From positions 42,063 through 106,062 of the forward strand of contig JAIESE010000013.1 of NCBI GenBank assembly GCA_019746225.1: a stretch of 64,000 nucleotides of DNA, written 5' to 3'. This document shows, piece by piece, positions 2 to 21,926 of this stretch (its first letter is position 1; each line of letters begins with the position of its first letter). This DNA is from Alphaproteobacteria bacterium. GTDB lineage: Bacteria; Pseudomonadota; Alphaproteobacteria; Paracaedibacterales; VGCI01. The notes under the pieces are model-generated. The model was not told where the DNA came from, searched no databases, and saw nothing but the letters and a program-made list of their open reading frames with translations. The translations under genes were made by a program, and so were the position numbers.

Positions 2-1237
2 ACGTATTTATTAAACCCTGACGTAAAAGGATCAATACAAGGACAATTGGGGATTATATACTATTTTCTTGGTGACAACATACAGGCAAAAGATTTGTTG
101 ATGACTAGTCTGTCAAACTTAAAGAAAGATTCTGATGAAAATCTTACAAGAATTCCTCTTTTCTTGGGATATCTAGGAAACGTCCAAAGGGATTTAGGAG
201 ATTATAAGGATGCAAAAAGACTTTTAGAAAGAAGTATTTCAATTTATGAGAAATCATATCCTAAAGAGGCTCAAAGATATGGATATTTTTTAGTCCATTT
301 GGGATGTGTGGAAAGAATCTTGGGAAATTATGAACAAGCAAGAATTTTATTTGAAAAAGGTTCCCTTATCCAGCAAAAATACTTCCCTGAAAATGATAAT
401 TACGCAGCCTGGGTCTCAGGACATTTGGGAATTATAGAAAGGGAGATGGGAGAATATGACAAAGCAAAAATTAATTTGGAAAGAAGTTTAGCAATTTTTA
501 AAAGGGATCGATCCCTTAATCATTTTGATACTGCCTGGGCTTTAGGTCATTTGACTGAAGTTTATGTCCAGCTCGGGGATTATGAAAAAGCAAAAGAAAC
601 ATCAAAAGAATGCCTTAAAATTCTTGCATCATTTTTACCAGATAAAATTGGCCCGGCTTGGATTTTAGCATATTTCGAATCTATTCCGGATTCTGAAATT
701 GAAAAAGAAGTAAAAAATCTATTTAATCAACTCCAAGCAATTTATAAAATTCATTTCCATGACAGCTATATTTATGTGGCATGGGCTATGAAACCCTTAG
801 CAAATACTTACATGAAGACCGGAAACTATGAGAGAGCTAAGTTTCTCTTGGGACAAATACTATCAATTTTTCAGAAAAACTATGGAACTGAACATATTGC
901 AACGGCTCAGATTTTTAGTGACCTTGGACAAGTCTTTTTGCTTGGGGGTAATCTTGAAGCTGCTGAGCCTATGCTTATTAAGGCATTTGGTGTCTTAAAG
1001 CTTAATAAACATCCGGCAAGTTACGTATGTTTGGAAAAATTATCAGATCTACTTCTAAAAAAATCTCTCTTAGCCAATGATTTAGGGAATGTAAATGAGG
1101 CCCGTAATTTTAAAACGCAATCGAGTGCATATTTAAAGCAAGCTCACGAAATTGTAAAAGATCATTTTCCTCCCAATTCTCCTCATATTATAAGGGTCCA
1201 GTCAAAACTTAAATCTCTAATCTCACAAGGCTCTTGA
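2..1237 (+). CDS. C-terminal TPR array of a STAND/TPR protein; 5' end cut by the window edge (third paralog of the 4820-8377 and 23521-26862 genes)
   Basis: The frame is open from nt 2, with no stop before the listed Met at 47. It contains repeated ~42-aa TPR_10/12-type units (LGxxYxxxGxYxxAxxxxExxL). The C-terminal tail AHEIVKDHFPPNSPHIIRVQSKLKSL matches AYDIVKAHFPEDSAHIKKIKEKLAKV and ALQVINARLPESSHKTRIQAKLQNIL of the two full-length paralogs. Confidence 0.8.
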   Translation, partial: TYLLNPDVKGSIQGQLGIIYYFLGDNIQAKDLLMTSLSNLKKDSDENLTRIPLFLGYLGNVQRDLGDYKDAKRLLERSISIYEKSYPKEAQRYGYFLVHLGCVERILGNYEQARILFEKGSLIQQKYFPENDNYAAWVSGHLGIIEREMGEYDKAKINLERSLAIFKRDRSLNHFDTAWALGHLTEVYVQLGDYEKAKETSKECLKILASFLPDKIGPAWILAYFESIPDSEIEKEVKNLFNQLQAIYKIHFHDSYIYVAWAMKPLANTYMKTGNYERAKFLLGQILSIFQKNYGTEHIATAQIFSDLGQVFLLGGNLEAAEPMLIKAFGVLKLNKHPASYVCLEKLSDLLLKKSLLANDLGNVNEARNFKTQSSAYLKQAHEIVKDHFPPNSPHIIRVQSKLKSLISQGS

Positions 1238-1294: not shown

Positions 1295-1315
1295 TAGGGG
1301 GCAAGATACCCCCTA
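1295..1315 (+). terminator. Stem-loop just after the TPR gene stop
   Basis: TAGGGGG-caagata-CCCCCTA is a 7-bp GC stem about 58 nt after the stop at 1237. There is no clear T tract. Confidence 0.35.
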
Positions 1316-1505
1316 AAACCCCCATTCTCATTTTCAAATATTATGAAACTTAAAAAGTCAAAATTTGAACTAATTCAATCATTCATTTCGAACACTTGAG
1401 AAATGCGCGCTTACATGTTGCATTTGCAACCTCGCATTTGTTGCAAGCAACACATCTTAGAAAATGGAATTTTTTGGTTTCAAAAATAGAACATTTTGGT
1501 GAATA
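1309..1505 (+). repeat. Copy 1 of a ~195-bp imperfect direct repeat with a palindromic core
   Basis: It aligns by eye with 3515-3715. Both start CCCCCTA..ACCCCCA shortly after a stop codon. Both share the core GCTTA.A.GTTGCATTTGCAAC.TCGCATTTGT (1410-1445 vs 3613-3648) and ...GGAATTTT(T)GGTTT... Confidence 0.7.
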
Positions 1506-2101
1506 AAACGCCCTCTATCGGGGGGAGTAAAATCGAGGGGGACTTCCGCCCATTACTCCCGTGACCCACATGCAACACAAGAGGGAAAAGTTTCTCATTT
1601 CAAGGTGTTAATGAGGTTTTTTCTTGATTATCAGGACTCACCTCTTTACCTTGAAAGATAGGTTCAAGATGAGTGCGCCGACCCGGCAAATTATCTGAAC
1701 CTTCTCGACCCGGCAGTGCCGAAGTCGAGAGTAAGCGTGGCGAATAGGTTCGCGAAAACCCATACGCCACTAACCATAACACAACGGATGAGGTTGAAAT
1801 CATGGCTAAAGACATCTTAGCGCATACTGAGCGCATTTTCCAAGAACAGAACAAGAGAATCCCCCATAATTCTGGGCCCCCAGAAGTGTGTCTCTCTTAA
1901 ACACGTTCATCTGAAGGAGGCGAGGCGCTGTCTTGTTTCCTTCATGTTGTGTGATGTTTGAGACGACCTCTTCGGGTTTTCCTTGTCTTTAATTGGTTCA
2001 TTTTGCCTTCGCGGCTAGTTGATTCATCATGCCCAAAATTCAAGATAGAAGACCCTCTCAAGCATTCATACGTCGATTTTGTAAAGATAAGGAGACAGTG
2101 A
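1506..2101. other. Roughly 600-bp non-coding segment, GC-richer than its flanks, upstream of the 2-gene cassette
   Basis: Hand counts on 60-nt lines give 45-57% GC here versus about 35% in neighbouring coding DNA. No convincing ORF exists on either strand. Several local stems are present: GGGAGTAA..TTACTCCC at 1522-1561, CTCGAC..GTCGAG at 1705-1730, and GAAGGA..TCCTTC at 1913-1943. Confidence 0.4.
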
Positions 2102-2473
2102 ATGATAAAAATTGTGTCTTTGGATGGGACTCCAGCAGAGTACTTTGAGAGTTTCGATGAACTTCTTAAGGATATCCAAACGATTGAAAATTTGAAGCTC
2201 GTGGATGATCAACCGAATCTTTCACAACTGAATTGGAGCTTTACGATCTATTCCCCAAGACGAGTCGCCGCTCTCTATACCCACACCAAAGACCCATGTG
2301 GAGCAATGCAAGAAGCCTTTGAGGATAATCTCCCGCTAATCGAGATTTGTGCCGGTGATTACAAAATGCCCTTGTACATCGTCCTAACCGCTAATGTTGA
2401 TATGGATTACCTGAAGCGAAAGTGGTGTATCGATTGGTGCACATACCATCACCTTCTTGTGAAGGAGTTGTGA
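2102..2473 (+). CDS. Hypothetical 123-aa protein, first gene of the cassette
   Basis: ATG is preceded by AAGGAG at -13. No recognisable motif. Confidence 0.6.
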   Translation: MIKIVSLDGTPAEYFESFDELLKDIQTIENLKLVDDQPNLSQLNWSFTIYSPRRVAALYTHTKDPCGAMQEAFEDNLPLIEICAGDYKMPLYIVLTANVDMDYLKRKWCIDWCTYHHLLVKEL

Positions 2474-2582
2474 GGGTTACATAACCTTTTACAAGGCTGA
2501 CAAACAAAATAATTAATTATTCTTTAATTGTATATGCTCAAAATAATCTTTAGGTGGTTAGTGTTTAGGAGAGCAGCATAGA

Positions 2583-3512
2583 ATGCCGATAGATCTTTTT
2601 GAACATGCATATTTCGAGGAATACAATGTAACGCTTACAAACATTGATTTTTCTGGGATGCCGACATCATTACAAAATGAAATAATGAAGCAGTGGTTTT
2701 TAAAGAGATATTGTGATCCTGTTGAGAATACACCGTATGATTCAGGCGAGGGTGGATATCAATATATATCTGGTGGCCCATTTGATGCACTTGAAACACT
2801 AAGCGACCAATTTTCAGACGTGGCAACTGATGAATTTATTGCCGAAACTGCAAGAGAACTTGAAGAAGAATTTGATATATCAGATTGGGTATATACAGAC
2901 GCGTTCTTTCAACATCAGGAAAATAGTAATGATCAATTTTATGAAATCGATGCAGGGATACAAAACAATGATCCCTATCTAGCCCTTAACGAAAAACTCA
3001 CTTCCATTGAGGAGTTGCTCAATGAGCCTTCGAGAGATAAACAATTTCAATTGACGATGGCTTTCGTATTTGTTGTTACGAATTTAGAAACTTATTTATC
3101 TGATATTTTTGTGAAGAACATTTTTAAGCCAGAGATAGATTACAACACAAGAGAGAAATTTCTCAGAGCCTCAAGAAAATCTACCGAAAAAATGCTAATA
3201 TCAGAAATTTTCAGACGATATGATAAGATTGATGATGAAATCAAGGACGAAATACAGAACACATCCTTTCATAATCTTCCGTTGGTAAAAAAACTATTTG
3301 CAGAAGTCCTTGATATTTCTCTTGTCGATACCCAACAATTAGAAGTCTTTATACGAAAAAGACATGATTTTATTCATAGAGGGGGTAAAGATAAGGATGG
3401 TAAAGAAATTAGCACAGATGAAAATGAAATTAAAAATTTGATCAATTTAGCCAGAGAATTTACTAAGGATATTAATGGAAAGTTGCCTGATTTTTTTAGG
3501 GATGTGTTCTGA
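2583..3512 (+). CDS. 309-aa protein with a C-terminal HEPN-like domain (Rx4H motif); possible Abi/defence RNase
   Basis: An AGGAGAG RBS is present. The C-terminal half is predicted helical and contains FIRKRHDFIHRGGKD, with the Rx4H motif at nt 3360-3377. An upstream LETYLSDIF-type helix resembles RiboL-PSP / MAE_28990-like HEPN families. The N-terminal half is acidic and unassigned. Confidence 0.55.
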   Translation: MPIDLFEHAYFEEYNVTLTNIDFSGMPTSLQNEIMKQWFLKRYCDPVENTPYDSGEGGYQYISGGPFDALETLSDQFSDVATDEFIAETARELEEEFDISDWVYTDAFFQHQENSNDQFYEIDAGIQNNDPYLALNEKLTSIEELLNEPSRDKQFQLTMAFVFVVTNLETYLSDIFVKNIFKPEIDYNTREKFLRASRKSTEKMLISEIFRRYDKIDDEIKDEIQNTSFHNLPLVKKLFAEVLDISLVDTQQLEVFIRKRHDFIHRGGKDKDGKEISTDENEIKNLINLAREFTKDINGKLPDFFRDVF

Positions 3513-3514
3513 TG

Positions 3515-3715
3515 CCCCCTACGACCCCCACCTAAATTTCCAATTTAGACGCATGAAAAAATCTTAAATTGAAAAATAATTCATCGTTCTCGTTGAAGAA
3601 TTTCAAAGTGCGTGCTTATACGTTGCATTTGCAACATCGCATTTGTGCATGTAACAGATATTAAGAATTGCAGGAATTTTGGTTTTTAGAGTGGATTGAT
3701 TTGAGGGTTTTGGTA
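3515..3715 (+). repeat. Copy 2 of the ~195-bp imperfect direct repeat
   Basis: See copy 1. It starts 3 nt after the stop of the HEPN-like gene. Confidence 0.7.
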
Positions 3716-4096
3716 AGCTGTTGATAGGGGCATTATTGCAGGGTTGTTATTGGGATGTTTTTAGTCCCAGCGAAATGCTTGATGAATTGTTGGCTGGTTG
3801 CCTAGCTTTCTTTTCAAATTCTGCTCATCCATTTGGCTCTAATCTACCAAAGTCTTCGTAAAGCCACCTAAAATCGTCGTGGGGCGCTTTTAGGATGAGA
3901 TCCGCTACTGATCCCTAAAAATGCACCCAAAAGGGATCAGGAGGTCATTTATGGAAGATTAAACAATAATTTAAATTAAACTTAATTAAAAATTTATCAC
4001 ACTCCTCATCTTCCATTTTTTCTCGAAGTTTTCTGAAGGAGGAGATCAAGAGGAGGAAGAATATTAGTTCTTGTATTCATGTAGTCTCGGTAATGA

Positions 4097-4139
4097 GAGG
4101 TGGCCAAATTGGCCAGCTCGAGGTGGTCAAGTTGGCCAG
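4097..4139. repeat. Two tandem 20-bp units, each carrying the near-palindrome TGGCCAAnTTGGCCA
   Basis: GAGGTGGCCAAATTGGCCAG (4097-4116) and GAGGTGGTCAAGTTGGCCAG (4120-4139) repeat with a 23-bp period. They lie about 75 bp from the 3' end of the integrase remnant. Confidence 0.6.
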
Positions 4140-4213
4140 ATGGATTTGCTATCTTTTCAGAAAGAAATAATGCTCAAAAAAATTCAATTTAAAAAATGTC
4201 AACTTTCGTAATT

Positions 4214-4540
4214 CTAAGGAAGATCAATATTTGCTTTTAAAGTCCTTTCTTGAATCTTTTGTGTCTTGTTTCCAAAAAACTCCGCAGCCTGTCTCAACGG
4301 TGCATCCGCTAGATGTGCGTATCTTTGCGTCGTTGAGGCTTGGGTGTGTCCTAATAGTTTTCCAACTATACTCAAACTTAAACCACTGGAAACCAGGTGC
4401 GACGCATGGGTGTGACGTAAATCATGAAGACGAACGTTTTGGAGGCCGGCTCTTGTTTGAATGGTCTTCCAGGCTTTTTTAATATCTTGAAGAGATTGTC
4501 CCGCCACTTTACCAGGGAAGAGATATTCTTTGGCAAGAAT
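4214..4540 (-). pseudogene. 3' remnant of a tyrosine recombinase (integrase) gene
   Basis: The translation ILAKEYLFPGKVAGQSLQDIKKAWKTIQTRAGLQNVRLHDLRHTHASHLVSSGLSLSIVGKLLGHTQASTTQRYAHLADAPLRQAAEFFGNK is nearly identical to the C-terminus of the intact integrase at 18080-19267. DNA identity is about 90% by eye. An in-frame TAG sits at the 5' boundary and the N-terminal ~290 codons are missing. Confidence 0.9.
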
Positions 4541-4819: not shown

Positions 4820-7800
4820 TTAAAGAATGTTTTGAAGTTTTGCTTGAATTCTGGTTTTGTGGGAAGATTCTGGAAGACGAGCATTTATCACTTGCAAGGC
4901 TTGATTGAACAGAGCAATGGCTTTTTGATCCAGCTCTCGAGATTCAATAATATTCTTATTTTCTTCAGCACGCTTCGACTTTTTAAGACACAGCTGAGCC
5001 AAATCTTCTAGAATGAGATATTGTTCTGTGTGATCCGCTGCTTGGAATTTTTGTAAAGCCTTAAGCAAATATTTTTCTGCCTCATTAATATTGCCTTCCA
5101 ACAGATAAACTCGTCCTAAACCATAGACCACACGAGCCACTTCCAAATGGTCTCTACCATAATTCCTTTCATAGATGAGCAGGCACTTTTGAAAGAGTTC
5201 ATGAGCTTCTTTGTAGTTCCCAAGGTCTGCCTGAACATTGCCAAGATATACCTTGGCGCGCGCAACTTCGACATAATGATCAGGTAGGTTTTTGCTATAA
5301 ATGGCCAAGCTTTTCTCGAGATACTCCTTTGCGGTTTCATAATCTCCTAATGTTCTATGAACATTTCCTAAATGAGCCAATGACCAAGCAAAGGCAACAT
5401 GATTCACAGGAAGGTGAGCACTGTAGATTTTGAGGCTTTTTTCAAATAATTCTTTTGCTTTTGTAAAGTTGCCCAAATCTCTATTTACATTCCCGAGACG
5501 AGCGTAAATTCTCCCTATCTCAACTTGATTATCTGGCAGGTGCTTTTTGTATAGCTGAAAACTCTTTTCATACAACGCATGAGCTTGCATGTAGTTTCCC
5601 ATATCTTTATTTATATTACCTAAATTTGAGAGAGCCCATGCATAGGGAATGTAATTTTCCGGAAGATGACTTTGATAAATTAACAGACTTTCCTCAAGAA
5701 CTTCTTTCGCTTTGTCATATTCACCCACATTACGATAAATAATACCTAAATGAATTAAAACTTGGGTAATGCCCGTATAGTTTTGTGGAAGATGGTCGCG
5801 GTAAATACGAAGACATGCGTTGAGAATGGATTTAGCTTTTTCATAGTTTTCCAACTCACCCTGAATGATACCCAAATAGCTCATAGCTTTTGCAAGGCCA
5901 AGCTTATTATCAGGAAGATCCCTTTGGTAAATGAGGGTTGCTTCTGTCAGATGGTTTTTTGCTTCTTTAAAACTACCAAGGTCCCAACAAGCATTGGATA
6001 GGTAAACCAACGCTTGTGCAACACGAGACACGTTTGCATATGGTTCTTTATTGAGTTTTGCAAGACTTGTTTCGAGCAGTACTTTCCCGTGTTTATAATT
6101 TCCTAAAGTATAATATAGATTCCCAAGCTCACACTCTATAGAGCCCTCTATCGTAGGTGTTAAAAGGCTCTTATGAGATAAAATTCGCTCATAATGATTT
6201 TTTAGCACCCTCATTTGCTGAAGATCTTCTTTATCTTCAATAACTTGTGAATATTCTTCTAGTCTTTTAGAAATGTATTCAATATTATGATGTTTTTTTT
6301 CCAAATCTAATATTTTTGTCAAATAAGCTAATATAATCTCTTGCGTGCTTCTATGAATGTAATAGCTTGAACCAGATGTTGCTGAGCTGGATAAATCATT
6401 GTTGATAAGAGAATATTTTTTTAAATGATATATGAAATTATCAATAACGACATCACTTTTATACGCGTCTAATAAATCCTTTGAAATATTTTGAGAATCA
6501 ATCAAGCTTATAAGGAGTAAAAGATCGCCAAAATCCTTATGAATATCCATAAGTGACCGTACTGCGGCAACGATAATTCCATAACGAGTCTTAGAATACT
6601 CACTTCTATCTTGTAAGACATTTTTTTGAAGAAGTGAAAAATCTGCATTAGAAACATTTAGATGCTCAAGATACTTAATATAGCTAATGTTTGTTGCTTT
6701 TAAATAATAAGCCGCAATACAAATATCTAAAGGAAAAGGTGGAAGACTCTTTAAAAACGTTATGGTATGTTCTTTTAGAGGAGGTTTAAAGTCTTGTTTG
6801 CTACCTTCTTCCATAACCTTCATAAATAAATCTAACTTTTCATCCTCCTCGAGTTCGTCAACTTGTATGACATGATTGACATGTGTGTTACTTTGAATAT
6901 GAGTATCTCGCGTTGTAATTATTACTTTGCCTTTTCCCCAAAAGGTCGCATCATGTGGAAAATATTTGTGAATATCAGAAAATTTTTCGACGTTATCATA
7001 AAAAAGAAACCAATCAGCCCGAGTCTTTAGACGTTCTCTGACAAATTGGATAAGTTTTTCTTCCTTTTCTGTAGGGTCTTTAATGTTATTTAAAGCAGTA
7101 AATACCTCTTTATCTTCGCGTGTTTTTAAAAGGGCCCCTGCAAGCTTCTCGAAAGAATCTTTGAGACTTTCCATTGATTCTGCATTCAATTCCCATGAGT
7201 TATCATTCTCTTTCTGATCTAAATATTGACGAGCAAGGAAGGTTTTCCCAGCCCCTCCAGGGCCAACAAGAGCAACTGTTTGAATGCCACCTTCCCCCAT
7301 CAGTTTATCGCCTAATAATGACAATAATTTAGGTCGCTGAAGAGTTGATGATAGTGACGCCTTCCTCGTAGTTAACGGTGTAAGATATCTATTTTTACCC
7401 TCAAACAAGAGAAACCCAGCTCCTACCAAGCTCAAACTTAACAAACATGCTGCAGTTAGATATCTCTTCCTAGGTCCCCAGAAAAAACCATTTTTAGGTG
7501 AGGGTTCCTCTTTCTTTGCACCATTATCCTTTGGTTTTGAACGTGACGGGAACATTTGTGGCTCCTCTAAAGGAACATCATTTGCGGCAAAAGGCTTAAA
7601 CTCATGAATATAAGGATCGATATTTATTAAAGGATAAATTTTTCTTACAAGGTCAAAAAAGGAGAAAAAGTAATTAGATTGATCCAGAAAATGAAAGGGC
7701 CCCCTTTCATAGGATCTTTTTGAAAATGTCCGCTTTCCGTCTTCTAAAACTAGGTAATATACCCGTTGCATATCATTTTGAGTGGACGAAGTTAAAAATC

Positions 7801-8377
7801 TTTTTTCAGGGACAATTTGAGGATCATTCAAATACTTCTCTGTAAGGATACAAAGGATATTCTCTTTTGAATAAGAGTTGATAACCTTTTCAAGGTTAAT
7901 GAGATTTTTAAGGAGAGGATTTTCTTTTTGAAAAATTTCCATCCCAGCCAAACTTAAATGATATTTTATTTGGTCGAGGATGGCCCCCTTCTCTTTGTTT
8001 AAACTTGGATCATACAGGAGGACCAAAAAATCTTTTGGATTTATATGAGATATTTTTTTTAAGGTGTTCTCAAAATGAAAATTTGCCATTAGCTGTGAAT
8101 AATACGGCTTGAAATGTACGTATTGATCACAATTTTCTACAAAATCAATGATGCCTTCTCGAGAGTTGCACTCCAGCTTAAGCATTATGTTACGTATATG
8201 AGTATCAACTGTTCTGGAAGAGATGTTCAGAAAGAAGGATATCTTTTTAGATGCTCTGCCATTGAGTAAGCACGAAATAATATCTATTTCTCTTTGAGTG
8301 AAATTTATCCCTCGCATTGTTTGAAGATGCACAGAATAAAACTTATTCAACAATGTATAATTATCTTTGATTTTCAA
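4820..8377 (-). CDS. STAND regulator, copy A: N-terminal LuxR/GerE HTH, one hydrophobic TM-like helix, NB-ARC P-loop NTPase, C-terminal TPR array (1185 aa)
   Basis: HTH: FTQREIDIISCLLNGRASKKISFFLNISSRTVDTHIRNIMLKL. Hydrophobic helix: YLTAACLLSLSLVGAGFLLF (aa 306-325). Walker A: GPGGAGKT. Walker B-like: WFLFYDNVE. RNBS-B-like: GKVIITTRD. GLPL-like: LPPFPLDICIAAYYL. About ten 42-aa TPRs follow. The listed start is TTG, so the true start is uncertain (alternative Met21 at 8317). Confidence 0.9.
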   Translation of the reverse strand: MKIKDNYTLLNKFYSVHLQTMRGINFTQREIDIISCLLNGRASKKISFFLNISSRTVDTHIRNIMLKLECNSREGIIDFVENCDQYVHFKPYYSQLMANFHFENTLKKISHINPKDFLVLLYDPSLNKEKGAILDQIKYHLSLAGMEIFQKENPLLKNLINLEKVINSYSKENILCILTEKYLNDPQIVPEKRFLTSSTQNDMQRVYYLVLEDGKRTFSKRSYERGPFHFLDQSNYFFSFFDLVRKIYPLINIDPYIHEFKPFAANDVPLEEPQMFPSRSKPKDNGAKKEEPSPKNGFFWGPRKRYLTAACLLSLSLVGAGFLLFEGKNRYLTPLTTRKASLSSTLQRPKLLSLLGDKLMGEGGIQTVALVGPGGAGKTFLARQYLDQKENDNSWELNAESMESLKDSFEKLAGALLKTREDKEVFTALNNIKDPTEKEEKLIQFVRERLKTRADWFLFYDNVEKFSDIHKYFPHDATFWGKGKVIITTRDTHIQSNTHVNHVIQVDELEEDEKLDLFMKVMEEGSKQDFKPPLKEHTITFLKSLPPFPLDICIAAYYLKATNISYIKYLEHLNVSNADFSLLQKNVLQDRSEYSKTRYGIIVAAVRSLMDIHKDFGDLLLLISLIDSQNISKDLLDAYKSDVVIDNFIYHLKKYSLINNDLSSSATSGSSYYIHRSTQEIILAYLTKILDLEKKHHNIEYISKRLEEYSQVIEDKEDLQQMRVLKNHYERILSHKSLLTPTIEGSIECELGNLYYTLGNYKHGKVLLETSLAKLNKEPYANVSRVAQALVYLSNACWDLGSFKEAKNHLTEATLIYQRDLPDNKLGLAKAMSYLGIIQGELENYEKAKSILNACLRIYRDHLPQNYTGITQVLIHLGIIYRNVGEYDKAKEVLEESLLIYQSHLPENYIPYAWALSNLGNINKDMGNYMQAHALYEKSFQLYKKHLPDNQVEIGRIYARLGNVNRDLGNFTKAKELFEKSLKIYSAHLPVNHVAFAWSLAHLGNVHRTLGDYETAKEYLEKSLAIYSKNLPDHYVEVARAKVYLGNVQADLGNYKEAHELFQKCLLIYERNYGRDHLEVARVVYGLGRVYLLEGNINEAEKYLLKALQKFQAADHTEQYLILEDLAQLCLKKSKRAEENKNIIESRELDQKAIALFNQALQVINARLPESSHKTRIQAKLQNIL

Positions 8378-8589: not shown

Positions 8590-11500
8590 ATGAAAAGAAA
8601 AGGTTTATTAATAAAAAGCTTGTTATTAAGTACCACGATTATGTGTGGACTCACTATGGGTGCACAACAGATACAAGAAGGCCTTGTTTATTATGGTGGG
8701 GATGGATTAACAGCACACCGAGAACAATTTACTATGGTAGGTAATCAAAGAGTGGAGCAACCCCATGGAGAATTGCCAGAACATAAAGGGTGTACGGTCA
8801 ACTATGTAGAAGCATTCTATAAGAACCAAGCCCCTATACCTTTGGCGAGACAGGGTGAGAATGCAGGAGGGTATAGATACGATGGATTTATAACAGATAA
8901 TTTCCACCCGACAATTCGAGCACAGCATCTCCTTTACAGCGACGGAGTAGATATCTATGAACCTCATGCTACGCAAGAATTGTGGACTCGTGGACAGGGA
9001 ACTCCTGGACAAGAGGATGTTCGTATTTTTATATCATCTCATAAAGATAGCCTTAAGTTGAACTGGACGCCAGGTATACGCATTGATACCCCCAATGGTA
9101 AATTACCAGCTGGCCTTTATCAATTTAGTTCATCAGAAAATTTAACTGAAGAAGTGCCTTACCATCAGAATAATGTTAACGGCGTAAGAACAAATTATTT
9201 TCGTAAGGAAAAATGGTCAAAAGTAGGAAGTGAGCAATCTTTTTACATAAACATGCCCTCGCATCACCTTGTCAGTGTTCCTGGAATGCCAGAATATATT
9301 CTTAATGAATTTCCTGAAGCGCCAAAAGATTTTGTTGATTTGAAAATGATAATTGATGCATTTGAACAGGCAGTGGCTAATAACCTAAATTTGCAACGTC
9401 CTGAGCAACGAATCATTTTTATTGGGGATGCCCGAGTCGGGAAAGACGCTCTTGCACATTATTATGCAGGTTCTGATTTATCGGTTGCGCTCAATAGGGG
9501 TTTTAGACCAGCGCGGGTTGAATTACAAGGCAATCCTCAATTAGGCTCATTAAGTGTTGTGTCTGGTATTATTGGCTCCCGAAATGTTGGCTCTTGGTTT
9601 GATCAAGCAGGCCAACGTGTCATTTGGACAACGCCTGGAGCTAATGGAATTGAAACCCCTTTGAATGATATTTTGAATGTTAAATCTCTTAAAACATTAT
9701 TAACAAAAAACAACCCATCAAAATACGTTTTAACCATTAAAGAGTCAGATTTATTTGAAGCAAATTATAAAAATCTAACTGAGGTTTTAATAAGGTTATC
9801 GCGCATGTTTGGGTATCAAGTACGGGAAGATGGTACCGTTGATATGGGGATAAATAATGATTTAAAAAATGCGCTTTCACTTGTCGTATCTCAAACTGAT
9901 CGTATGAATCAAGGTGACTTGGTTGATGGAGTCTATTTAGACCAAAATGGAGTTCAGCAGCCAGTCAAAGGCATATTACGAAATATTTTAGAAGTCATGC
10001 AAAGTGCACCTTTGAACTATGATGCTGGCGGCATGGGCATCTTGGAATATTTAGTAAATCATCCTGAACGTGTTTCTTTCTTCTCTTTGCCAAATCTCGC
10101 CAATGCACTCTATGAACCTAGAGATCCCCTCAACACAAGAGAATCCATTCAACAGAGTATAGATGTAGCAAATGGAAACGAGTCGCGTTATATGGCAGTC
10201 CAAAACCCAGCTGATATTCATATTGTTTTTAAAGAAGAATCAAATACATTCATTAAACAAGTATTGGATAAATTAAATAATCAGGTGACAAAATACTTAA
10301 GTGAGGACGCAGTTGAAACAATATGGAATCTTTGCAATCAAAAAATACTTGGGCATGAAGGAACCGTAGATGAACTTCGTGATAAGCTTCTAGCTTTCTC
10401 TAATAAGTTTAACAACGCTAACACGCAACCTCTAGACGATTTTGTGCGGGACATTGAGAGTCTAATAGGTACGAATGGAATCACAAGGAATATAAATCAT
10501 ATACGCTATTTACAAGAAAAGTTGGGTATAAATACCAATTATGCTCGCGATCAGTGGCTTGCTCCGTTGATGTCTGTCATGAACAACATTCGTTACTTAA
10601 GCTCAAAAAATGTAGTCGATGGAAGTCAAAATTTAGATACATTAAATGGAATTAACTATATTTTTGATAGCCAAAATAAAGAATTAACGCTTGTTGGCTA
10701 CTTACTTGGCATGACCGATGTGAAGAAGTTTGTAGAAAATAATCTTACGCGTAGTGGAATTACAGGCCTAACTCCGAATACTGAAATACGAAAACTCAAT
10801 CTCCTATCTCTACGAAATTTGTTAGCAGATGGTAGTTTAAGTTTGAAAGAAGCAACGGTCGTTGGAATAACACCCGAAATAGTTCAGACAACCCAGTCTG
10901 TCACGCTCGATCTTTCTGCTAGAGCCCATCCATCTATGAGTAAGGCTGCCAATGATCAAGTTGGAACGCCAGGTCTTCCCGGAAGAAACGGTGGAAGCTT
11001 AGTCTTATTAGCAAATAAATTTACTGATGCCTATAAAGTAGCCCACCCACAAAATCCAACCACATTTGAAATTAAGAAAGACGGGGGGTCGGGACAAAAC
11101 GGCCAAGAAGGGGCAATAGCACATCGGTGCCTACACCAGCGGATGGTACTACGGGAGATTGGAACGAGCATAGTTCTACGCCGGTTTCCGTAGGTCGAGG
11201 AGTAGATGATCCTGAAAAAAATAGATATTATGTGTCTGCATTGAAAGTGAAGGGTGGAACTGACGAAGATAGAAAGGGAAATCCTATTCCATGGTATAAA
11301 GCCCATTTGAGCATTGATTATACTAAGAAAGAGTATAAACAGGCAGGCATAAAAGGGACTAAAGGTAGCAATGGTAAGAATGGCGGAGCCAAAGGACTAA
11401 AAGGGCATCAAGGTCTTTTAGTTGTGGATTGTCCCAAAATAAGCCCTATCGTCGCAAGCAATCCACCCCAGGATGGGTCTGATGGAAGTGGGGGTAGCGG

Positions 11501-11912: not shown

Positions 11913-11939
11913 TGCAGCTAAATTTTTAAGGAGGAAAGA

Positions 11940-14900
11940 ATGAAGTACGTAGTATCTAATAACTCAGTTCACAAGGTATTCACTTTGAAAGGATGCGTTA
12001 CAAGAATTGTCATTCTTTCTCAAATAAGCTCCCATATTGCTGGAGCTATGGAAGAAGCCTTAACGGATAATCCTGTTAAGGTGTCTTCATCTTCCACTCT
12101 CGCGTATGGATTTTCTGCTTTTCCAACCAACAAGTACATTGAGACTCAACAGCAAGCTCTTAATTATTTTGGGTCACTTGATTTAACTCCAAAAGATATA
12201 CTTATATTTCCTGCGCCAATAGCACAAGCTCTGATTGTCAATCGGATTGAAAGTGGACAACCATCTAATATTGCGGGTTCAATAAAATCAGATGAATTAT
12301 CCTCCATGATGTTTAAAAATCCAAAAGGGTTTGTTATAAACAACCCTTTAATTAGCAATGTTTTAGACCTGGATTTCGTAGCTCAAGCCGATGAGTATTT
12401 TGATAACTATTCGAAAGAACGAGGTGCGATAGAAATAAAAAGCACTTCTCTTTCAAGTGGCGAACGTTTAGAAAACTTACGCCTTAAGGCTGAGTCTATC
12501 TGCATTCAAGAATCTGTTCTAGATCCATTAAATTCACTATCTATTGAGTTGCTAAAGGGAGATAAGGATCGGCTTTTGTCTAATGCCGATAAAAAACAAG
12601 CATTATACATAAATCCAAACACGATCTTGCGGGCGGCAAAACTATCAATTCATTCCCACAATCAGTTGCCCTTAATAATCGAAGGTGTTTTACAGAGTAC
12701 CGGCGGAAATATTGAGATCTTTTCAGATGGAGATATTGTGCTTCATAACGTTTCTTGTAGTGGAAAGCTGATTATTCATACTAATGGAAGGGTTATTTTT
12801 GAAAATGATGCTGCCGTAATTGGTGGTGTGGAAATACATGCTTTATCTTTCGAGAACAAAGGACGCCTCATAACTAAGGGTAATATGGATTTTGGAAAAA
12901 CCCAAATCATCAACAAAGGTCTTCTGCAGACTGAAACAGACATTTCTTCTGAGACATTACATAATAGTAAATCTGGTCATATAATCGCCAGAACCCTTGA
13001 TAATCTTATGTCTATTTTGCCCCATAATGAAGGAACGATAGAATTTTTAGATGCATGTACATTAAATGGTGAACATTCGCTCGATCTGAAAGGAACTTTG
13101 GTCGTCAACGGCCTTCTAGATTGTCAATTATCCGGTGTTGACTCCACGCTTACTTTAAGAGAGGGCAGTCAAGTAAAGGCGTTAAAAGGTGCGACTGTCA
13201 AACTTCATACTCTCACTAATCATGGAAAGTTGAACATTACCGGAGAAAATCTAGGATTATATCTCACATGTTTAAATAACTTTGGGGATATTGAATCAGT
13301 AAACGGCACTTACGGTGAGGTATTCAAGTTAGTAAATAGCGCCACCATCCGCACGCTTGGCCATTCTACGCTTAACTGTACAACCGTTGAAAATAAAGAA
13401 TCCGGCAGGTTTTATACGGCAGGGGTTCATCATGTTAATGTGACGGGAAGTTATCTTGACTCAGGTTATGTTTATTCTCCCACATTATTTTTGCTACAAG
13501 GGGCTTATCTTCAATTTCTTCCTCATCACCAATCATTTATTGCTAATGGGGTTATTAAAGCGACGCAGAAGTTAACGGTTGCTTCAGAAGCAATTTTGAA
13601 CATGAGACACCGTCTGCAATTTTACTCTGATAACACGATTGTCCATCAAGGTGTAAATAATCAGCTCCAAGAATATCACAAGTCTGATGAGGATGCTCTT
13701 TATGACACTTACTATTTGCTCAACCCAGATTTCATTGCGCCCAGATGGGAGCGGAATGTTTTTAAAGCTTACGTTAATACGTTTTTAACAGGGCATTGGG
13801 GGGACTATTTAAGAAATTTGCTTAAAGAACCTTATGGCATTGTAACAATGGCCCGGGGCGATCTCACACGACGGGGCAATGACAATATCCAAGCGGGAGG
13901 TTCACGCTATACAACTTTTGGTCAATTTAAAGGGAGCAAATCTTATATAAAAACGGGATATTTCCCAGATAATCATGCCCAAATACAAGCAGATAGTGGC
14001 AACTTTTCAAATGTTACCTTAAATGCTCTTGGGGGAAAGGTTGCTGTGAAGTTAGATAAGGATATGGAAGCAAAGAAATTTCACGCTCAAGCAAAGACTA
14101 TTGCTGAGTTAAACGTAAGGGGCTCGATGAGTCTTAAAGATGCATCCATTGCAGCCAGACTAGTCAGTTTAGAGGCTCAAAAAGATATGCAGATGAACAC
14201 TGTCACGTTACAAGCCCAAGATCATATCCATGCTTCGACTCCCGGTAAATTTCAAGCTTCAGATTTACAATTGAAAGGCGGTGCAACGACACACATAGAA
14301 GGGGATCAAGGTATCCACATACAAGGATTGCAGAATCAAAACAAAACAAGATTGAAATCATCTAAGCAAGTAATATTAGACAAAGAGGCTAAAGGAGGTG
14401 AGTTAAGCATTGAAACAACTGAAAACTTTACCAATAACGCTTCTGTTGAAGTTGATAAATTTTCCCAGAGCAGTCTCCATTTTCAAAATAATAAAAAGGT
14501 TGTAGCGAAAGGTACCCTGAAATCAAAAAGCCAAACCTATGGCGATACAGAAGAAGCTATGTTGGAAGGTTCTGAAGTAGTGCTTGATGCGCCTTTAACA
14601 AGAGGAGGATTTAAGGGAATAGTTAAAGCGGATATGGCTGAAATTCTCCTAAAAGATATGCAGCTGCAAGAACTTTTACGGCACATAGATATTCAAAACA
14701 CATTAACCTACACAGTTGATGATCATCTGGTAGTTGATGAGGATATTATCATAAAATGCAAGATGGTATTGCACGCAGTAGGTCTAGAAAATAAGTCAAG
14801 GATTACAGCAGATAAGAACTTTTTGTCATTTATAAAAAGAAATATCTTGAATGGTGGTCTCTTTCTTGGTCAAGGTTCCGCATACTTTGAAGCCGGAGGT

Positions 14901-17900
14901 GCTTTTACTAACACTGCCCAGTTAAAAGCAAAAGAAGGTTTAGGGGTCAAAGCGGCCCAAATATTAAATAAAGGTGACGAAAAGCTTCCTGCGGTAATGG
15001 AAGGCCAGGATATTTCGTTAGAATCTACCCAAGGCAGCATTGAAAGCCAGTACGGACAATTTAGGGCAAAACAATCATTTCAAGCTCGATCGGCTCGCGA
15101 TACAACTCTCGATGCTTCAGAAGTTGACGCTGGTCAATCCATAAACATTACCTCGGCACGCGATACTTTGATCCAATCCGTTGTTAAGAGACTAAAGTCT
15201 GGTGAGGGAAACTATAAAGATATTGCTGTCCGTTCATTGCTTAATTCTGGCGGATCAATAGCTCTTTTATCGGGTAACAATACAACTCTTATTGGGGCAA
15301 GATTAAAGGCAGCGCTTGATATTGGAGTTGCTGCACAGAATGTTTATAGCTTAGCTTTAGGATTAGAAGAACAAGAAACACACGCTATTACTGACGGTTC
15401 TCAGACAAAGTATAAGCTGACAAATGATGTCAGTCAGATACAGGCAGGTGGAAATGTTGGTATTCATGCAAAAGGCATGAACTACCACCAGGCAACAGAT
15501 ATTGTCGCACAAAATTTGTCATTGCTGGGTCAAGATGTTGTGATCGATGACGTTACGGATAAGTTTTACTTATCGGAAACCACAAAGCATGAAGGTGGAT
15601 TGTTCGGTCAAAATACTGAACAACAGATGCAACGGCAAGAAAGTACATCAAGAGGTGCTAATTTCAACGTTTTTGAAAGAATAGGAGTGAAGGCATTAAA
15701 TAGTATTTCTGTAAAAAATATAAAATGCCAAGCTCAAGAGACCATTCTAGATTCTCCAGAAGTTAAAATTTTGTTGGGGCGTAACGAAATGCAATCCGCA
15801 TCAACAGAAAAGAGCTCCAATGTTTTATGGGTGCGAACCACACAATCCTCCGATGAAAAATTAGATCATCAGGCTTCTGAGTTTAAGGGAGCCGTTAAAA
15901 TCAATGCTAAAAACGCAATGATAGAAAGAGTTGCAGGCCAAACTCTGGGTTTTATGAAGACCTTGTCGGGAGATATACAAAATCTATCCGAATCAGAAGT
16001 CGTTGATTACTATAATAGAAAATCGAAAACAGTCGAGGGGCCATCTCAAGCCTTCGCCATGGTAATTGCTCTAGCTGTCTCAATGACAGGTGTTGGCAGT
16101 GCTTTGGGTGCAGCGCTCGTTGGCACAACATTGTCAACTACTCTCGCGGGAACAATGGTATCCGCTGCTGTGACAACTCTATGTAGTCAAGCAGCGGTAC
16201 AGCTTATAGCTGCCAAAGGCAATATCATACAAGCAGCAGAAGCCATGGCAAATACTAAGGTTCTTGAATCTATGGCGCTGAGTGCGATAACTGCAGGGAT
16301 TACAAGTCAACTTTGTGACGTATTGCATCTTCAGTTAGACCCCATAAAAAAGAATTTATTTGACAATATAAAACAGAAAGGTGTTGAGAATGTAGTAAAT
16401 CTAGGGGCTAATATTGTTCAAGGGGGAGATGCCGATATAGCCCTTCGCAATGCTGCAGTTTCGACAGTAGTTGGGGCTTTGAGTGCATCAGCCGCGTATG
16501 AAATTGGAAATGGGTATTCGCATAACCATGTTGATCCAGTAACTCATAAATTATTGCATGCTGCTTTGGGTGCAGCTTCAGGAGCTCTACAAGGAGATGA
16601 CCCCGCTAAAGGAGCCCTAACTGGAGCCATAAGCGCTACGGTAGCTGTGACTGTTACAGATATTATTCAAAAGGACTCAAAATCAGTTGCCAAAAGGGCT
16701 CTAGATAGAGCTGAAAGAGAAAATATAGAAACAACGCCTGAGAATATGCGCGCTCTTATTCGTCAAGAAATACAAATGACCGGGGCTGGTGGAAAAATTA
16801 CAAGCGCTATTACGGCAATGCTTTTAAAACAGGATATGAATATAGCGATCGGAGCCTCTACGAATGCAATAGAAAATAATTGTCTGGAATCAATGGCTGC
16901 GCTTGCACTCCACGAGGCCAATGTCATGGCTGAAGCTAGACAAAGTGAAGGTACTGGGAAAACGACTCTATTTGAGAAAGACCGAGAGGATACTGAATGG
17001 AGTGGAGAAATTCCTTCTAAAGCACATGTTGGCATTGAGGGGGAAAAGTCTTATGTCGCTCATTATATAGCGGGCAAAAAAGCGCAATATGAGCATGATG
17101 GAAAATCGTGGGGTGAAAAAGAAATAGCACAAGCCCGTAAGGAGGCAGAAACTGAATTAAAAGGCATTGAGCAAGTTACATGGCATGAAGATGTTTTGTT
17201 AGGAGGGGCAAATATTGCGCGCAAAGCCGGTGCACATGGTTTAAAAGCAGCGGGAACCTACACTGCAGAAAAAATTCGAGAATTTGCCAAAGGGAAAGTT
17301 CAAGAGAAGGTTCAGGAGATATTAGTAGGTGAAAGTTGCTTAGATGCTGGCCAGTTTGTTGAAAGGGAAGCCCACAACCTTGGTGCAAGTGATAAAATGG
17401 CTAAAGGGCTCGGGGCAGCGACAGAACAGGGTTGTGAGCTATTCGTTTCCAATGCAATAAGCAAAGCAGCTTCGGGAGCCCGCTCATCCTCATCAGATAT
17501 CCCTCATATAGAGGCGATTTCATCAGATCATGATCAAGTTGCGCATAAAGGTTATTACGGACGAAAAGCAGATAGGGCTGAAAAACATAAATGGGATAAG
17601 GCGGTAAATGAGGCTCAACCAGCAGTATACAGCAAACATCAAAAAGCGACAACGCGAGAAGAAGCTGAAAGATTGGCACGTCCTGGAAAACCATCACAAT
17701 ATTTTCCAGGTCAAAATGTAGAAGATTTGGAAAGGGAAGCTTTAAAAAGGGGAGCAAAACTTCCTGATCTTAAAGACAAAGGAAGCACTTATGTTGAATA
17801 TGCTTTTCCTTATGAGATTGGAGTTGCTAATGGAAAACCTACTAAGAGCATACGGGTTGAAATGACAAATTCTAGTGTTCCCGAGTTTCATGGACATCCC

Positions 17901-17918
17901 AGACCTGAAAAAAAATAA
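11940..17918 (+). CDS. TpsA/CdiA-like filamentous-haemagglutinin-family exoprotein with an ENN-delimited C-terminal toxin region (1992 aa)
   Basis: An AAGGAGG RBS is present. The TPS-domain-like segment is ALIVNRIESGQPSNIAGSIKSD..MFKNPKGFVINNP (compare ILNRVTG..S.I.G and the NPNGI motifs). A long beta-helix-type repeat region follows. A Gly/Ala-rich helical DUF637-like segment is GPSQAFAMVIALAVSMTGVGSALGAALVG... A VENN-like motif, STNAIENN, lies at nt 16866-16880 and is followed by a 345-aa C-terminal region. Confidence 0.85.
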   Translation: MKYVVSNNSVHKVFTLKGCVTRIVILSQISSHIAGAMEEALTDNPVKVSSSSTLAYGFSAFPTNKYIETQQQALNYFGSLDLTPKDILIFPAPIAQALIVNRIESGQPSNIAGSIKSDELSSMMFKNPKGFVINNPLISNVLDLDFVAQADEYFDNYSKERGAIEIKSTSLSSGERLENLRLKAESICIQESVLDPLNSLSIELLKGDKDRLLSNADKKQALYINPNTILRAAKLSIHSHNQLPLIIEGVLQSTGGNIEIFSDGDIVLHNVSCSGKLIIHTNGRVIFENDAAVIGGVEIHALSFENKGRLITKGNMDFGKTQIINKGLLQTETDISSETLHNSKSGHIIARTLDNLMSILPHNEGTIEFLDACTLNGEHSLDLKGTLVVNGLLDCQLSGVDSTLTLREGSQVKALKGATVKLHTLTNHGKLNITGENLGLYLTCLNNFGDIESVNGTYGEVFKLVNSATIRTLGHSTLNCTTVENKESGRFYTAGVHHVNVTGSYLDSGYVYSPTLFLLQGAYLQFLPHHQSFIANGVIKATQKLTVASEAILNMRHRLQFYSDNTIVHQGVNNQLQEYHKSDEDALYDTYYLLNPDFIAPRWERNVFKAYVNTFLTGHWGDYLRNLLKEPYGIVTMARGDLTRRGNDNIQAGGSRYTTFGQFKGSKSYIKTGYFPDNHAQIQADSGNFSNVTLNALGGKVAVKLDKDMEAKKFHAQAKTIAELNVRGSMSLKDASIAARLVSLEAQKDMQMNTVTLQAQDHIHASTPGKFQASDLQLKGGATTHIEGDQGIHIQGLQNQNKTRLKSSKQVILDKEAKGGELSIETTENFTNNASVEVDKFSQSSLHFQNNKKVVAKGTLKSKSQTYGDTEEAMLEGSEVVLDAPLTRGGFKGIVKADMAEILLKDMQLQELLRHIDIQNTLTYTVDDHLVVDEDIIIKCKMVLHAVGLENKSRITADKNFLSFIKRNILNGGLFLGQGSAYFEAGGAFTNTAQLKAKEGLGVKAAQILNKGDEKLPAVMEGQDISLESTQGSIESQYGQFRAKQSFQARSARDTTLDASEVDAGQSINITSARDTLIQSVVKRLKSGEGNYKDIAVRSLLNSGGSIALLSGNNTTLIGARLKAALDIGVAAQNVYSLALGLEEQETHAITDGSQTKYKLTNDVSQIQAGGNVGIHAKGMNYHQATDIVAQNLSLLGQDVVIDDVTDKFYLSETTKHEGGLFGQNTEQQMQRQESTSRGANFNVFERIGVKALNSISVKNIKCQAQETILDSPEVKILLGRNEMQSASTEKSSNVLWVRTTQSSDEKLDHQASEFKGAVKINAKNAMIERVAGQTLGFMKTLSGDIQNLSESEVVDYYNRKSKTVEGPSQAFAMVIALAVSMTGVGSALGAALVGTTLSTTLAGTMVSAAVTTLCSQAAVQLIAAKGNIIQAAEAMANTKVLESMALSAITAGITSQLCDVLHLQLDPIKKNLFDNIKQKGVENVVNLGANIVQGGDADIALRNAAVSTVVGALSASAAYEIGNGYSHNHVDPVTHKLLHAALGAASGALQGDDPAKGALTGAISATVAVTVTDIIQKDSKSVAKRALDRAERENIETTPENMRALIRQEIQMTGAGGKITSAITAMLLKQDMNIAIGASTNAIENNCLESMAALALHEANVMAEARQSEGTGKTTLFEKDREDTEWSGEIPSKAHVGIEGEKSYVAHYIAGKKAQYEHDGKSWGEKEIAQARKEAETELKGIEQVTWHEDVLLGGANIARKAGAHGLKAAGTYTAEKIREFAKGKVQEKVQEILVGESCLDAGQFVEREAHNLGASDKMAKGLGAATEQGCELFVSNAISKAASGARSSSSDIPHIEAISSDHDQVAHKGYYGRKADRAEKHKWDKAVNEAQPAVYSKHQKATTREEAERLARPGKPSQYFPGQNVEDLEREALKRGAKLPDLKDKGSTYVEYAFPYEIGVANGKPTKSIRVEMTNSSVPEFHGHPRPEKK

Positions 17919-21920: not shown

Positions 21921-21926
21921 GATAGC

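Follow-up and report, generated by a model that had tools for sequence, protein, structure and literature searches.

Repeat copies and genes at the locus

The DNA analyzed here, referred to as the window, is a stretch of 64,000 nucleotides (nt) from an alphaproteobacterial genome (assembly GCA_019746225.1, contig JAIESE010000013.1, positions 42,063 to 106,062 of the forward strand). Near its left end, two direct copies of a ~195-bp structured non-coding module, named rep1 and rep2, bracket a gene for a small orphan protein, ORF123, and a gene for a stand-alone HEPN protein. An earlier note on the sequence had read this layout as suggesting a cassette that can be mobilized by recombination, or a reiterated regulatory unit. 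The comparison with related loci points instead to the region ~1296-4507 as what decay has left of a small integrative island that targets tRNA genes, in which the module happens to occur twice. We give this reading a probability of about 0.5. It refers to the following features:

1296-1505, plus strand: rep1, left copy of the ~195-bp structured non-coding module (repeat search, MAFFT, core match, profile hidden Markov model [HMM])
2102-2473, plus strand: ORF123, small orphan protein of 123 amino acids (aa) (open reading frame [ORF] list; invariant C83, C109, C113, and H116, WCxDxCxxH)
2583-3512, plus strand: stand-alone HEPN protein of 309 aa (N-terminal HEPN/RES-NTD1 and C-terminal RiboL-PSP-type HEPN, R260-x4-H265)
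3498-3715, plus strand: rep2, right copy of the module, directly after the HEPN stop codon, 3' part partly decayed (MAFFT, core match, profile HMM)
4214-4507, minus strand: integrase stump, C-terminal 97 aa (Pfam Phage_integrase, E 1.9e-16)

The repeat search pairs positions 1352-1441 with 3557-3646, a profile HMM built from the copies locates the repeats at 1305-1499 and 3511-3704, and in the MAFFT alignment the homology spans GAT.CCCCCTA..ACCCCCA through TTTTGGTTT. The copies are 72.5% identical over 182 nt (blastn) and 66% identical over the 234 columns of a global alignment. Identity is highest in a core, where 30 of 33 bases agree between the copies (91%) compared to ~65% in the remainder of the unit. 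This core is also the best-aligned block, with 18 and 16 identities in two successive 20-column blocks, and homology continues from it for ~110 nt leftward and ~60 nt rightward. Outside the repeat ends, the flanks align at the level of shuffled sequence and the repeat unit is thus discrete and sharp-edged. The 33-nt core GCTTAnAnGTTGCATTTGCAACnTCGCATTTGT has two exact matches in the 64 kb, where none is expected, and GTTGCATTTGCAAC has no sites in the window beyond the two repeats. Scans for the exact core in collections that exclude the window's own contig yielded no hit among genomes, the initial pattern for which (NTCG) was blind to the variant of the relative mentioned next, none among viral sequences, and two loci in metagenomes. 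Both of these come from one relative, in which the core occurs once per contig, 3' of the HEPN gene. A blastn search of plasmids gave no match for the repeat nor for the whole bracketed segment.

Repeat search, MAFFT, profile HMM, and blastn thus bear out the two direct ~195-bp repeats with a conserved core that had been described in the earlier note. A GC-richer stretch and two ORFs of 123 and 309 aa do lie between them, at 1401-2100, 2102-2473, and 2583-3512, respectively. The statement that each repeat starts just after a stop codon needs to be restricted to the right copy, the unit of which includes the HEPN TGA (3510-3512). The left copy starts ~60-70 nt 3' of the stop codon (1235-1237) of its left neighbor, a TPR/STAND gene.

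Related islands and the origin of the left copy

Entries that match the ORF123 and HEPN proteins of the window with 100% identity come from an alphaproteobacterial metagenome-assembled genome (MAG), and relatives of ORF123 were found in Ca. Finniella and Ca. Paracaedibacter MAGs. The island family is located in such Paracaedibacteraceae-like alphaproteobacterial genomes. In locus L001, a truncated ORF123 is followed by a HEPN gene (87% identical), one repeat copy that is 82.8% identical to rep2, and a tRNA-Asn gene, whereby the ~410 nt between the repeat and the tRNA gene are rich in short direct repeats; this locus shows neither an integrase nor a left repeat copy. In L007 and L009, the order is leader, ORF123, HEPN (70 and 68-69% identical to the window protein, respectively), a degenerate repeat, small genes or an HTH-Gp49 pair, and then, encoded by the other strand, a complete tyrosine integrase. 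The L007 repeat consists of two partial tandem copies. L018 harbors the leader-ORF123 part, a 785-aa gene, AbiEii-type genes, and a repeat-like sequence with a tRNA-Ser gene ~135 nt further on, and it shares its 374-kb contig with an L001-type copy. In all four of these relatives, each island has one module, located past the cargo and before the integrase/tRNA end, and a profile HMM search of L007, L009, and L016 detected no module on the left side of the leader. The module count is two in the 64 kb of the window and one per related island.

From this gene order, a common backbone can be proposed. It would start with a promoter, a structured leader that holds a micro-ORF of 32 codons and a terminator hairpin, and ORF123. 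A defence cargo gene would follow, which is variable and which in the window is the stand-alone predicted HEPN RNase, then the ~195-bp module, in some islands a toxin-antitoxin pair, and finally a P4-type integrase and/or a tRNA gene. On the DNA level, the stump at 4214-4507 shows 80.7% identity to the 309-aa integrase of L009 and 73.7% identity to the 393-aa Arm-DNA-bind_3 integrase of L007. The integrases of these two loci comprise the domains Phage_int_SAM_3, Phage_int_M, and Arm-DNA-bind_3. Judging from this similarity, the stump is what remains of the island's tyrosine integrase. Together with the missing toxin-antitoxin genes, it is a sign of decay of the window island, and no tRNA or attachment (att) repeat is recognizable at the remnant in the window. 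There are hints in the aligned loci that the island family targets tRNA-Thr. L009 has an intact tRNA-Thr gene (52-127) at the opposite island end, and in L007 a 21-nt fragment beyond the integrase (11917-11937) is 95% identical to the anticodon arm of this tRNA-Thr.

Among the closest known systems are tRNA-targeting islands and integrative mobilizable elements with P4-type integrases, including the Rickettsiales amplified genetic elements. Common to both are the Arm-DNA-bind_3 integrase (in the relatives), the adjacency to tRNA genes, toxin-antitoxin modules, a variable defence cargo, and paralogous backbone genes inside elements that carry F-type transfer genes. Unlike those islands, the family of the window is very small (~3-6 kb) and its integrase is only a stump here. 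The backbone elements themselves, the leader/ORF123 part and the hairpin module, are undescribed.

If the segment were a mobilizable cassette, the direct copies would be recombination or initiation-termination sites and the 2.2-kb ORF123-HEPN segment would move as a unit, for example through a site-specific recombinase or through a relaxase that uses one copy for initiation and the other for termination. It fits with this that the copies are discrete, have the same orientation, and are most similar in the core, and that an integrase stump lies nearby. Moreover, directly repeated transfer origins recombine during R1162 transfer, which we counted in favor of a cassette. However, the relatives carry a single repeat and none of them has the module on both sides. 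The copies are just ~70% alike, the structure of rep2 is partly lost, and the integrase is a stump that is located outside the bracketed segment. The homology on both sides of the core is also unlike an attL/attR pair (left and right attachment sites). Fourteen independent assemblies of the strain, namely those carrying the genes, were compared with the window. Over the parts covered, 13 of them are 100% and one is 99.9% identical to it; only the full arrangement is present and neither an excised form nor any sign of excision was found. A look-up by way of the right-hand STAND gene for contigs that lack the cassette gave no entry. The cassette proposed in the earlier note is therefore not upheld by these data, which likewise revealed no attC boxes, and we regard it as improbable.

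Further types of repeat elements were considered and rejected. An attL/attR pair does not agree with an identity that is not confined to a crossover core, nor with an integrase stump outside the bracketed DNA. The segment resembles an integron in that a gene and an imperfect palindromic element are combined in direct repetition beside a tyrosine recombinase gene. Unlike in an integron, the recombinase is P4-type related, lies downstream, and is convergent, and the relatives have a single copy of the element. attC boxes are absent, since GTTGCAT misfits GTTRRRY and TTGCAAC misfits RYYYAAC, and the stump, which converges on the genes from downstream, scores far below the cut-off for integron integrases. 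A miniature inverted-repeat transposable element or other palindromic repeat element was dismissed because there are two copies in 64 kb and no terminal inverted repeats were seen, and type III antitoxin repeats because the copies are 2.2 kb apart and the relatives have no copy upstream of HEPN.

In the island reading, rep2 would be the module in its native place. rep1 would be a second, better-preserved, and diverged copy, left behind by a neighboring or accreted sister island, instead of marking where a cassette begins. In its 5' half, with both arms of the GC hairpin and the inverted repeat CATTTC-n10-GAAATG, rep1 resembles the L018 copy, and the L001 copy is like rep2 in its 5' half and like rep1 in its 3' half. 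This mosaic similarity suggests that rep1 and rep2 derive from different module lineages and not from a recent local duplication. Thus, on the basis of the aligned copies, a relic of a sister island appears more likely than a local duplication as the origin of rep1. Some observations weigh against an accretion: the left neighbor of rep1 is a STAND gene, neither a second integrase nor a tRNA fragment nor a leader-ORF123 part was found within reach to the left of rep1, and the 590 nt available 5' of that STAND gene hold no ORF123 or leader.

Fold and possible role of the module

The first part of the module is a GC hairpin on the plus strand, which was read from the aligned copies (TAGGGGG-n7-CCCCCTA in rep1, GTAAGGGGG-n9-CCCCCTTAC in L018). 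In rep2 and L001, its 5' arm lies within the final HEPN codons. The hairpin is followed by ACCCCCA, an AT-rich spacer of ~70 nt, and an inverted repeat that occurs in two types, one shared by rep1 and L018, CATTTC-n10-GAAATG, and one shared by rep2, L001, and L007, (C)TTTGAA(A)-n4-(T)TTCAAA(G). L009 has the second type with one mismatch and a 3-nt loop. Directly abutting the inverted repeat is a GC box, A(A/G)(A/G)TGCG(C/T)(G/A)CTTAYA, which reads AAATGCGCGCTTACA in rep1. Next comes a long imperfect hairpin of ~46 nt. Its outer stem is AAATGCG/CGCATTT and its inner stem GTTGC-ATTT-GCAAC, with an internal loop of 7 nt, and the conserved TCGCATTTG constitutes the 3' arm of the outer stem. The last part in rep1 is a small third hairpin, GTTG-CAAG-CAAC.

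For the 14-nt palindrome GTTGC-ATTT-GCAAC, the earlier note had preferred a protein-binding site over a hairpin. In the structure described above, the palindrome makes up the tip of the ~46-nt hairpin, with 5 bp in the stem and 4 nt in the loop. In place of this inner stem, L007 has CAAAC-TTTT-GTTTG and L009 has GTGC-CTTT-GCGC, and the outer stem in both loci reads CAAAG../..CTTTG. As judged from the alignment, these replacements are compensatory changes, and they favor a folded single strand over a duplex operator, contrary to the former preference. The aligned copies show that the module carries conserved hairpins, the pairing of which has been kept through sequence change, and we infer that it acts as a folded single strand. 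Folded as RNA and compared with shuffled sequences, rep1 and L001 reach z-scores of -3.1 and -3.6, and the L007 core folded as DNA reaches -2.9. rep1 retains every hairpin. rep2, which has lost the third hairpin, folds at shuffle level (z +0.23).

A structured RNA is one way in which such a strand could function. The module would then be co-transcribed with the upstream gene as a structured 3' untranslated region (UTR) or small RNA and act as a terminator, as a stabilizer, or as an RNA that regulates or neutralizes the HEPN RNase. It lies 3' of a plus-strand gene in five of six settings (rep1, rep2, L001, L007, and L009), and the GC hairpins of rep2 and L001 extend over the HEPN stop codon. 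The covarying hairpins, which include some plus-strand G-U pairs, and the RNA folding z-scores of ~-3 for rep1 and L001 would also suit an RNA. However, the module has no Rfam family match and none of its plus-strand hairpins was flagged as terminator-like. The copy in L018 is located upstream of the 5' end of a minus-strand gene and hence is not a 3' UTR. Furthermore, distant HEPN homologues are without the module (nhmmer), and the copy that is attached to HEPN in the window, rep2, is the decayed one. An RNA element is unlikely, albeit the main alternative.

With gathering as well as permissive thresholds, Rfam gave no match for the repeats or the leader, and in the window it recognized only three tRNAs, which are located elsewhere. 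Sub-threshold matches were at chance level; one to alpha-tmRNA (transfer-messenger RNA; E 0.014, minus strand) was gone on re-scan. The sequence CCCCC-TAAAACC-C-CCA after the GGGGG/CCCCC stem looks like the 3' end of a tRNA or tmRNA and had suggested a tRNA-derived att site. This candidate was rejected, since ARAGORN and Rfam found no tRNA or tmRNA in the repeats, there is no matching acceptor strand, and the local tRNAs are dissimilar. A small ORF within the repeat was discarded as well, because by our reading it has 18 codons in rep1 and 4 codons in rep2 and is not conserved. The same applies to a sigma-70 promoter within the repeat, for which the hexamer spacing varies among the copies on inspection and the scan count equals the shuffle expectation. 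A third GC-box site in the Finniella locus L030 lies inside a 459-aa ORF and was put down to chance.

As a duplex, the palindromes (GTTGCA TT TGCAAC; AAGTGCGCACTT in relatives) could be operators through which a dimeric DNA-binding protein would control the genes on either side. In line with this are the conservation of the core (30/33) over the rest of the unit (~65%), the GC box, the L007a and L009 versions of which are perfect palindromes of 12 bp, and the presence of HTH regulators in related islands. Against it, L007 and L009 keep the pairing potential and not the palindrome sequence, we saw no conserved promoter spacing alongside, promoter-like sites did not exceed expectation in a scan, and the leader has its own promoter ~150 nt further on. 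We therefore consider operators a poor explanation. It might also be that the module has no function any more, so that the left copy is rearrangement debris and both copies are now inactive. The island is decaying, as seen from the integrase stump and the loss of the toxin-antitoxin genes, rep2 folds poorly, and the population is clonal. On the other hand, the core is 91% identical where the unit otherwise shows ~65%, and rep1 keeps all of its hairpins and is in its 3' half closer to the distant L001 copy than rep2 is. These alignment data suggest a continued constraint on at least one copy of the module, and there is little to recommend a functionless relic.

The reading that we prefer, tentatively and with the odds still against it, is that the module is an origin-of-transfer (oriT)-like site. 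This idea arose because the hairpin is a backbone part of an island with an integrase but without transfer genes, while sister elements carry F-type transfer genes. A transfer origin would allow such an island to be mobilized by conjugative elements of the same lineage. The nick-region consensus of MOBQ systems is NWACCNNTAAGTGCGCCCTYNN (RSF1010/R1162; PMC3832669), and a predicted MOBQ3 oriT from Paracoccus reads ATAAGTGGGCACTTCGTG... (PMC3832669). In the islands, an inverted repeat abuts A(A/G)(A/G)TGCG(C/T)(G/A)CTT, which resembles this nick region, and the inverted repeat 5' of the GC box is present in all copies. The boxes read AAGTGCGCGCTT in L007, AAGTGCGCACTTACGTG... in L009, and AAGTGCGTGCTT and AAATGCGCGCTT in the window. 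They agree with the MOBQ nick consensus AAGTGCGCCCTY (TAAGTGCGCCCT) at 10 of 12 positions in the window and at 11 of 12 in L007 and L009. The module is thus like a MOBQ oriT in having an inverted repeat immediately 5' of a GC-rich box, on the same strand and in the backbone of a mobile element. It differs from a MOBQ oriT in that the box is also one arm of a further long hairpin and in that there is no adjacent relaxase gene.

Several points count against a transfer origin. With up to two mismatches, AAGTGCGCCCTY occurs 10 times in the window compared to 5.2 times expected, which is not significant alone. The perfect 12-bp palindrome of the GC box in L007a and L009 would equally fit a duplex protein site. 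Plus-strand G-T wobble pairs are few (3 vs. 1 by our own count) and do not separate RNA from single-stranded DNA. Finally, no relaxase gene was seen in the loci examined, among which L013 and L019 showed only genes of the TraE, TraK, TraG, and TraD type. One may go further and imagine the module as a hairpin-type oriT or a mimic of one, the directly repeated copies of which delimit an ORF123-HEPN mini-element for a relaxase, with the micro-ORF of the leader gating the terminator; this combination is a long shot.

Cargo, leader, and surroundings of the proposed island remnant

The HEPN assignment, which the earlier note had based on an Rx4H motif (RHDFIH, residues 260-265), is supported by family profiles. 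In an alignment of 14 family members including the window protein, E169, H230, R260, H261, H265, and R266 are near-invariant, and at E <= 0.01 Pfam recognizes HEPN_RES_NTD1 in 13 and HEPN_RiboL-PSP in 8 of the 14 proteins (best E 3e-9). The window protein itself matches PF18870 over residues 35-113 with an E value of 1.7e-4 and 22.4 bits, below the cut-off of 27.4 bits, and does not match PF18735 at E <= 0.01. Precomputed PF18735 assignments exist for seven homologues, including the 68% identical P0004, and the phage protein family phrog_17908 is matched with an E value of 4.8e-26. AlphaFold models the C-terminal half as entirely helical, with a predicted local distance difference test (pLDDT) score of 84-96 in most blocks. 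Foldseek lists HEPN toxins, Csm6, and YutE, all with E > 1 and thus non-significant; there was no significant match to a solved structure. The PADLOC check proposed in the earlier note found no family in PADLOC-DB for HEPN or for ORF123.

The protein is like the PF18735/PF18870 type of HEPN in its two-domain layout, the R-x4-H motif, the conserved upstream E169 and H230, and the helical C-terminal half, and also in that its gene stands alone in defence-type surroundings and is represented in phage protein families. Unlike that type, it scores below the Pfam thresholds and is covered by no defence-system model. Distant homologues (32-41% identity) are solo genes as well. One of them, from Bacteriovorax sp. 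PP10 (L036, 2567-8137; 39% identical), is located between an STM3845 and RVT_1 gene pair, which in our reading is retron-like, and a NACHT STAND gene, and this is a defence-island setting. The defence-island context suggested in the earlier note agrees with this reverse transcriptase pair and NACHT gene beside the distant homologue as well as with the STAND genes and the integrase stump that flank the segment in the window. In L001 and L007, HEPN is intact where ORF123 is 5'-truncated, so that ORF123 is not a required antitoxin and HEPN is independent of it. From its family and neighborhood, the window protein is most likely an abortive-infection or defence RNase.

ORF123 has 54 close homologues, and a profile search places its relatives in 184 clusters at 50% identity. 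It matches no family in Pfam, NCBIfam, or PADLOC and no solved structure. Its AlphaFold model has a pLDDT of 91, and no fold match was obtained from PDB or BFVD. The family was studied in loci L013, L016-L019, and L024-L035. In L013 and L019 it adjoins the F-type transfer genes TraE/TraK or TraG/TraD, and its downstream neighbors differ among the loci. One Ca. Finniella inopinata MAG contains ~10 copies, either full or partial. Truncation at the 5' end affects many of the copies, and L027 and L032 have short 3' fragments 450-700 nt past full copies. ORF123 is a backbone gene of these mobile elements.

The earlier note had described a GC-rich non-coding stretch before ORF123. The region 1401-2100 is indeed GC-richer than its flanks (0.43-0.49 vs. 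~0.30-0.37), but it is not featureless, since a promoter, a leader, a micro-ORF, and a terminator hairpin were assigned to it. The DNA of ~1640-2101 is 68-78% identical to the sequence 5' of ORF123 homologues in ten other loci. The features of this region and the palindromic sites next to the integrase stump are as follows:

1594-1623, plus strand: terminator-like hairpin, CTCATT...AATGAG with a T run (read from the sequence, first columns of alignment A4)
1624-1652, plus strand: putative sigma-70-type promoter, TTGATT-17 nt-TACCTT (own reading, alignment A4 columns ~46-85, six loci)
1730-1945, plus strand: structured leader RNA with seven predicted helices (RNAalifold on aligned loci)
1802-1900, plus strand: putative micro-ORF of 32 codons, MAKDILAHTERIFQEQNKRIPHNSGPPEVCLS (own strong Shine-Dalgarno sequence; frame and length conservation)
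4088-4130, no strand assigned: two tandem palindromic sites, GAGGTGGCCAAATTGGCCAG and GAGGTGGTCAAGTTGGCCAG (palindromes TGGCCAAATTGGCCA and TGGTCAAGTTGGCCA; read from the sequence)

The terminator-like hairpin at 1594-1623 would close whatever lies upstream of it, and the homologous module of L009 starts at the equivalent hairpin. The element at 1624-1652 was not listed by a simple promoter scan; its homologues have TTGATT/TTGCAT, a spacing of 17 nt, and TAAAGT/TAAGCT, from which a promoter role is inferred. For the leader, RNAalifold predicted 43 pairs, 16 of which show compensatory changes. Of the cells, 94.5% are paired, a share that falls to 39-47% after sliding of the partners, and none of 500 shuffles attains the observed score. 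One of the helices pairs UAACC with GGUUG beside the Shine-Dalgarno sequence of the micro-ORF, and a 13-bp hairpin at 1912-1944, flagged as terminator-like, begins 11 nt after the micro-ORF stop. The micro-ORF has 32 codons in 10 of the 11 loci in which it was found and 30 in the other one, with start, frame, and stop kept, conserved residues MAK..AH...FQ......PP, and the end ...SGPP....*. It shows no codon-position bias, and the ratio of nonsynonymous to synonymous polymorphism (pN/pS) is ~0.2-1.2, so that the peptide sequence is weakly constrained. It is thus the conservation of frame and length, rather than the substitution pattern, that argues for its translation, and the weak constraint would fit a regulatory upstream ORF that overlaps an RNA structure.

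It is possible that the leader is a ribosome-dependent attenuator that controls ORF123. We take leader-peptide transcription attenuators (trp, tnaC, and erm leaders) to be the nearest comparison. Similar to those, there is a short ORF with a Shine-Dalgarno sequence, RNA helices, and a terminator-like hairpin ahead of the downstream gene. Different from those, no alternative anti-terminator pairing was identified, and there is a conserved Pro-Pro near the end instead of regulatory codon runs. In four Finniella loci (L026, L028, L029, and L032), a ~170-nt insertion is located between the terminator hairpin and ORF123 (A4 columns ~520-690). Inside it is a long inverted repeat, GGACGCGGCAATCCATG ... 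CATGGATTGCCGCGTCC, and the insertion has the appearance of a miniature palindromic element. In one sample of a relative's genome (L016), an insertion sequence with a DDE_Tnp_1 transposase (1730-2878) splits the conserved leader into 1397-1485 and 3056-3354.

On the other side of the island remnant, the tandem palindromes at 4088-4130 adjoin the integrase stump. L007 has three GGACAAnTTGTCC palindromes (9717-9790) in the equivalent place, 5' of the HTH_3/Gp49 genes. By this correspondence, the palindromes of the window were probably the operators of an HTH-Gp49 toxin-antitoxin pair that has since been lost. The window further contains three paralogous LuxR(GerE)-NB-ARC-TPR STAND genes at 47-1237 (plus strand), 4820-8377 (minus strand), and 23521-26862 (minus strand), two of which converge on the island remnant from both sides. 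A 1992-aa ORF with a DUF637 (possible hemagglutinin) domain lies within 11940-17918, preceded by ORFs of 874 and 251 aa for which no Pfam match was obtained. In 18080-23246, a second P4-type integrase, intact, with 395 aa and on the minus strand, is followed by a response-regulator/methyltransferase/histidine-kinase trio, and the region resembles a further module of an island. Genes of these three kinds also form a trio in L013, after an ORF123 paralogue and beside TraK/TraE genes.

The segment is a cautionary case, since what looks like a cassette in one genome turns out, by comparison with the relatives, to be an island backbone element that happens to occur twice here. Its family has a compact design of conserved ends and a swappable defence cargo, HEPN here and AbiEii-type genes elsewhere, in poorly studied Paracaedibacteraceae-like hosts, and the conserved ends provide a handle for finding new cargo genes. 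Three of the backbone parts deserve attention on their own. ORF123 represents a Cys3His family that is predicted to fold confidently, has no Pfam family or structural neighbor, and is linked to conjugative elements. The leader with its micro-ORF is supported by covariation, absent from Rfam, and shared by 11 loci. The hairpin module is a testable candidate transfer origin. If it were one, tiny defence islands without transfer genes would ride the conjugative elements of endosymbiont-like bacteria, and with a start at the left copy, ORF123 and HEPN would be the first genes to enter the recipient.

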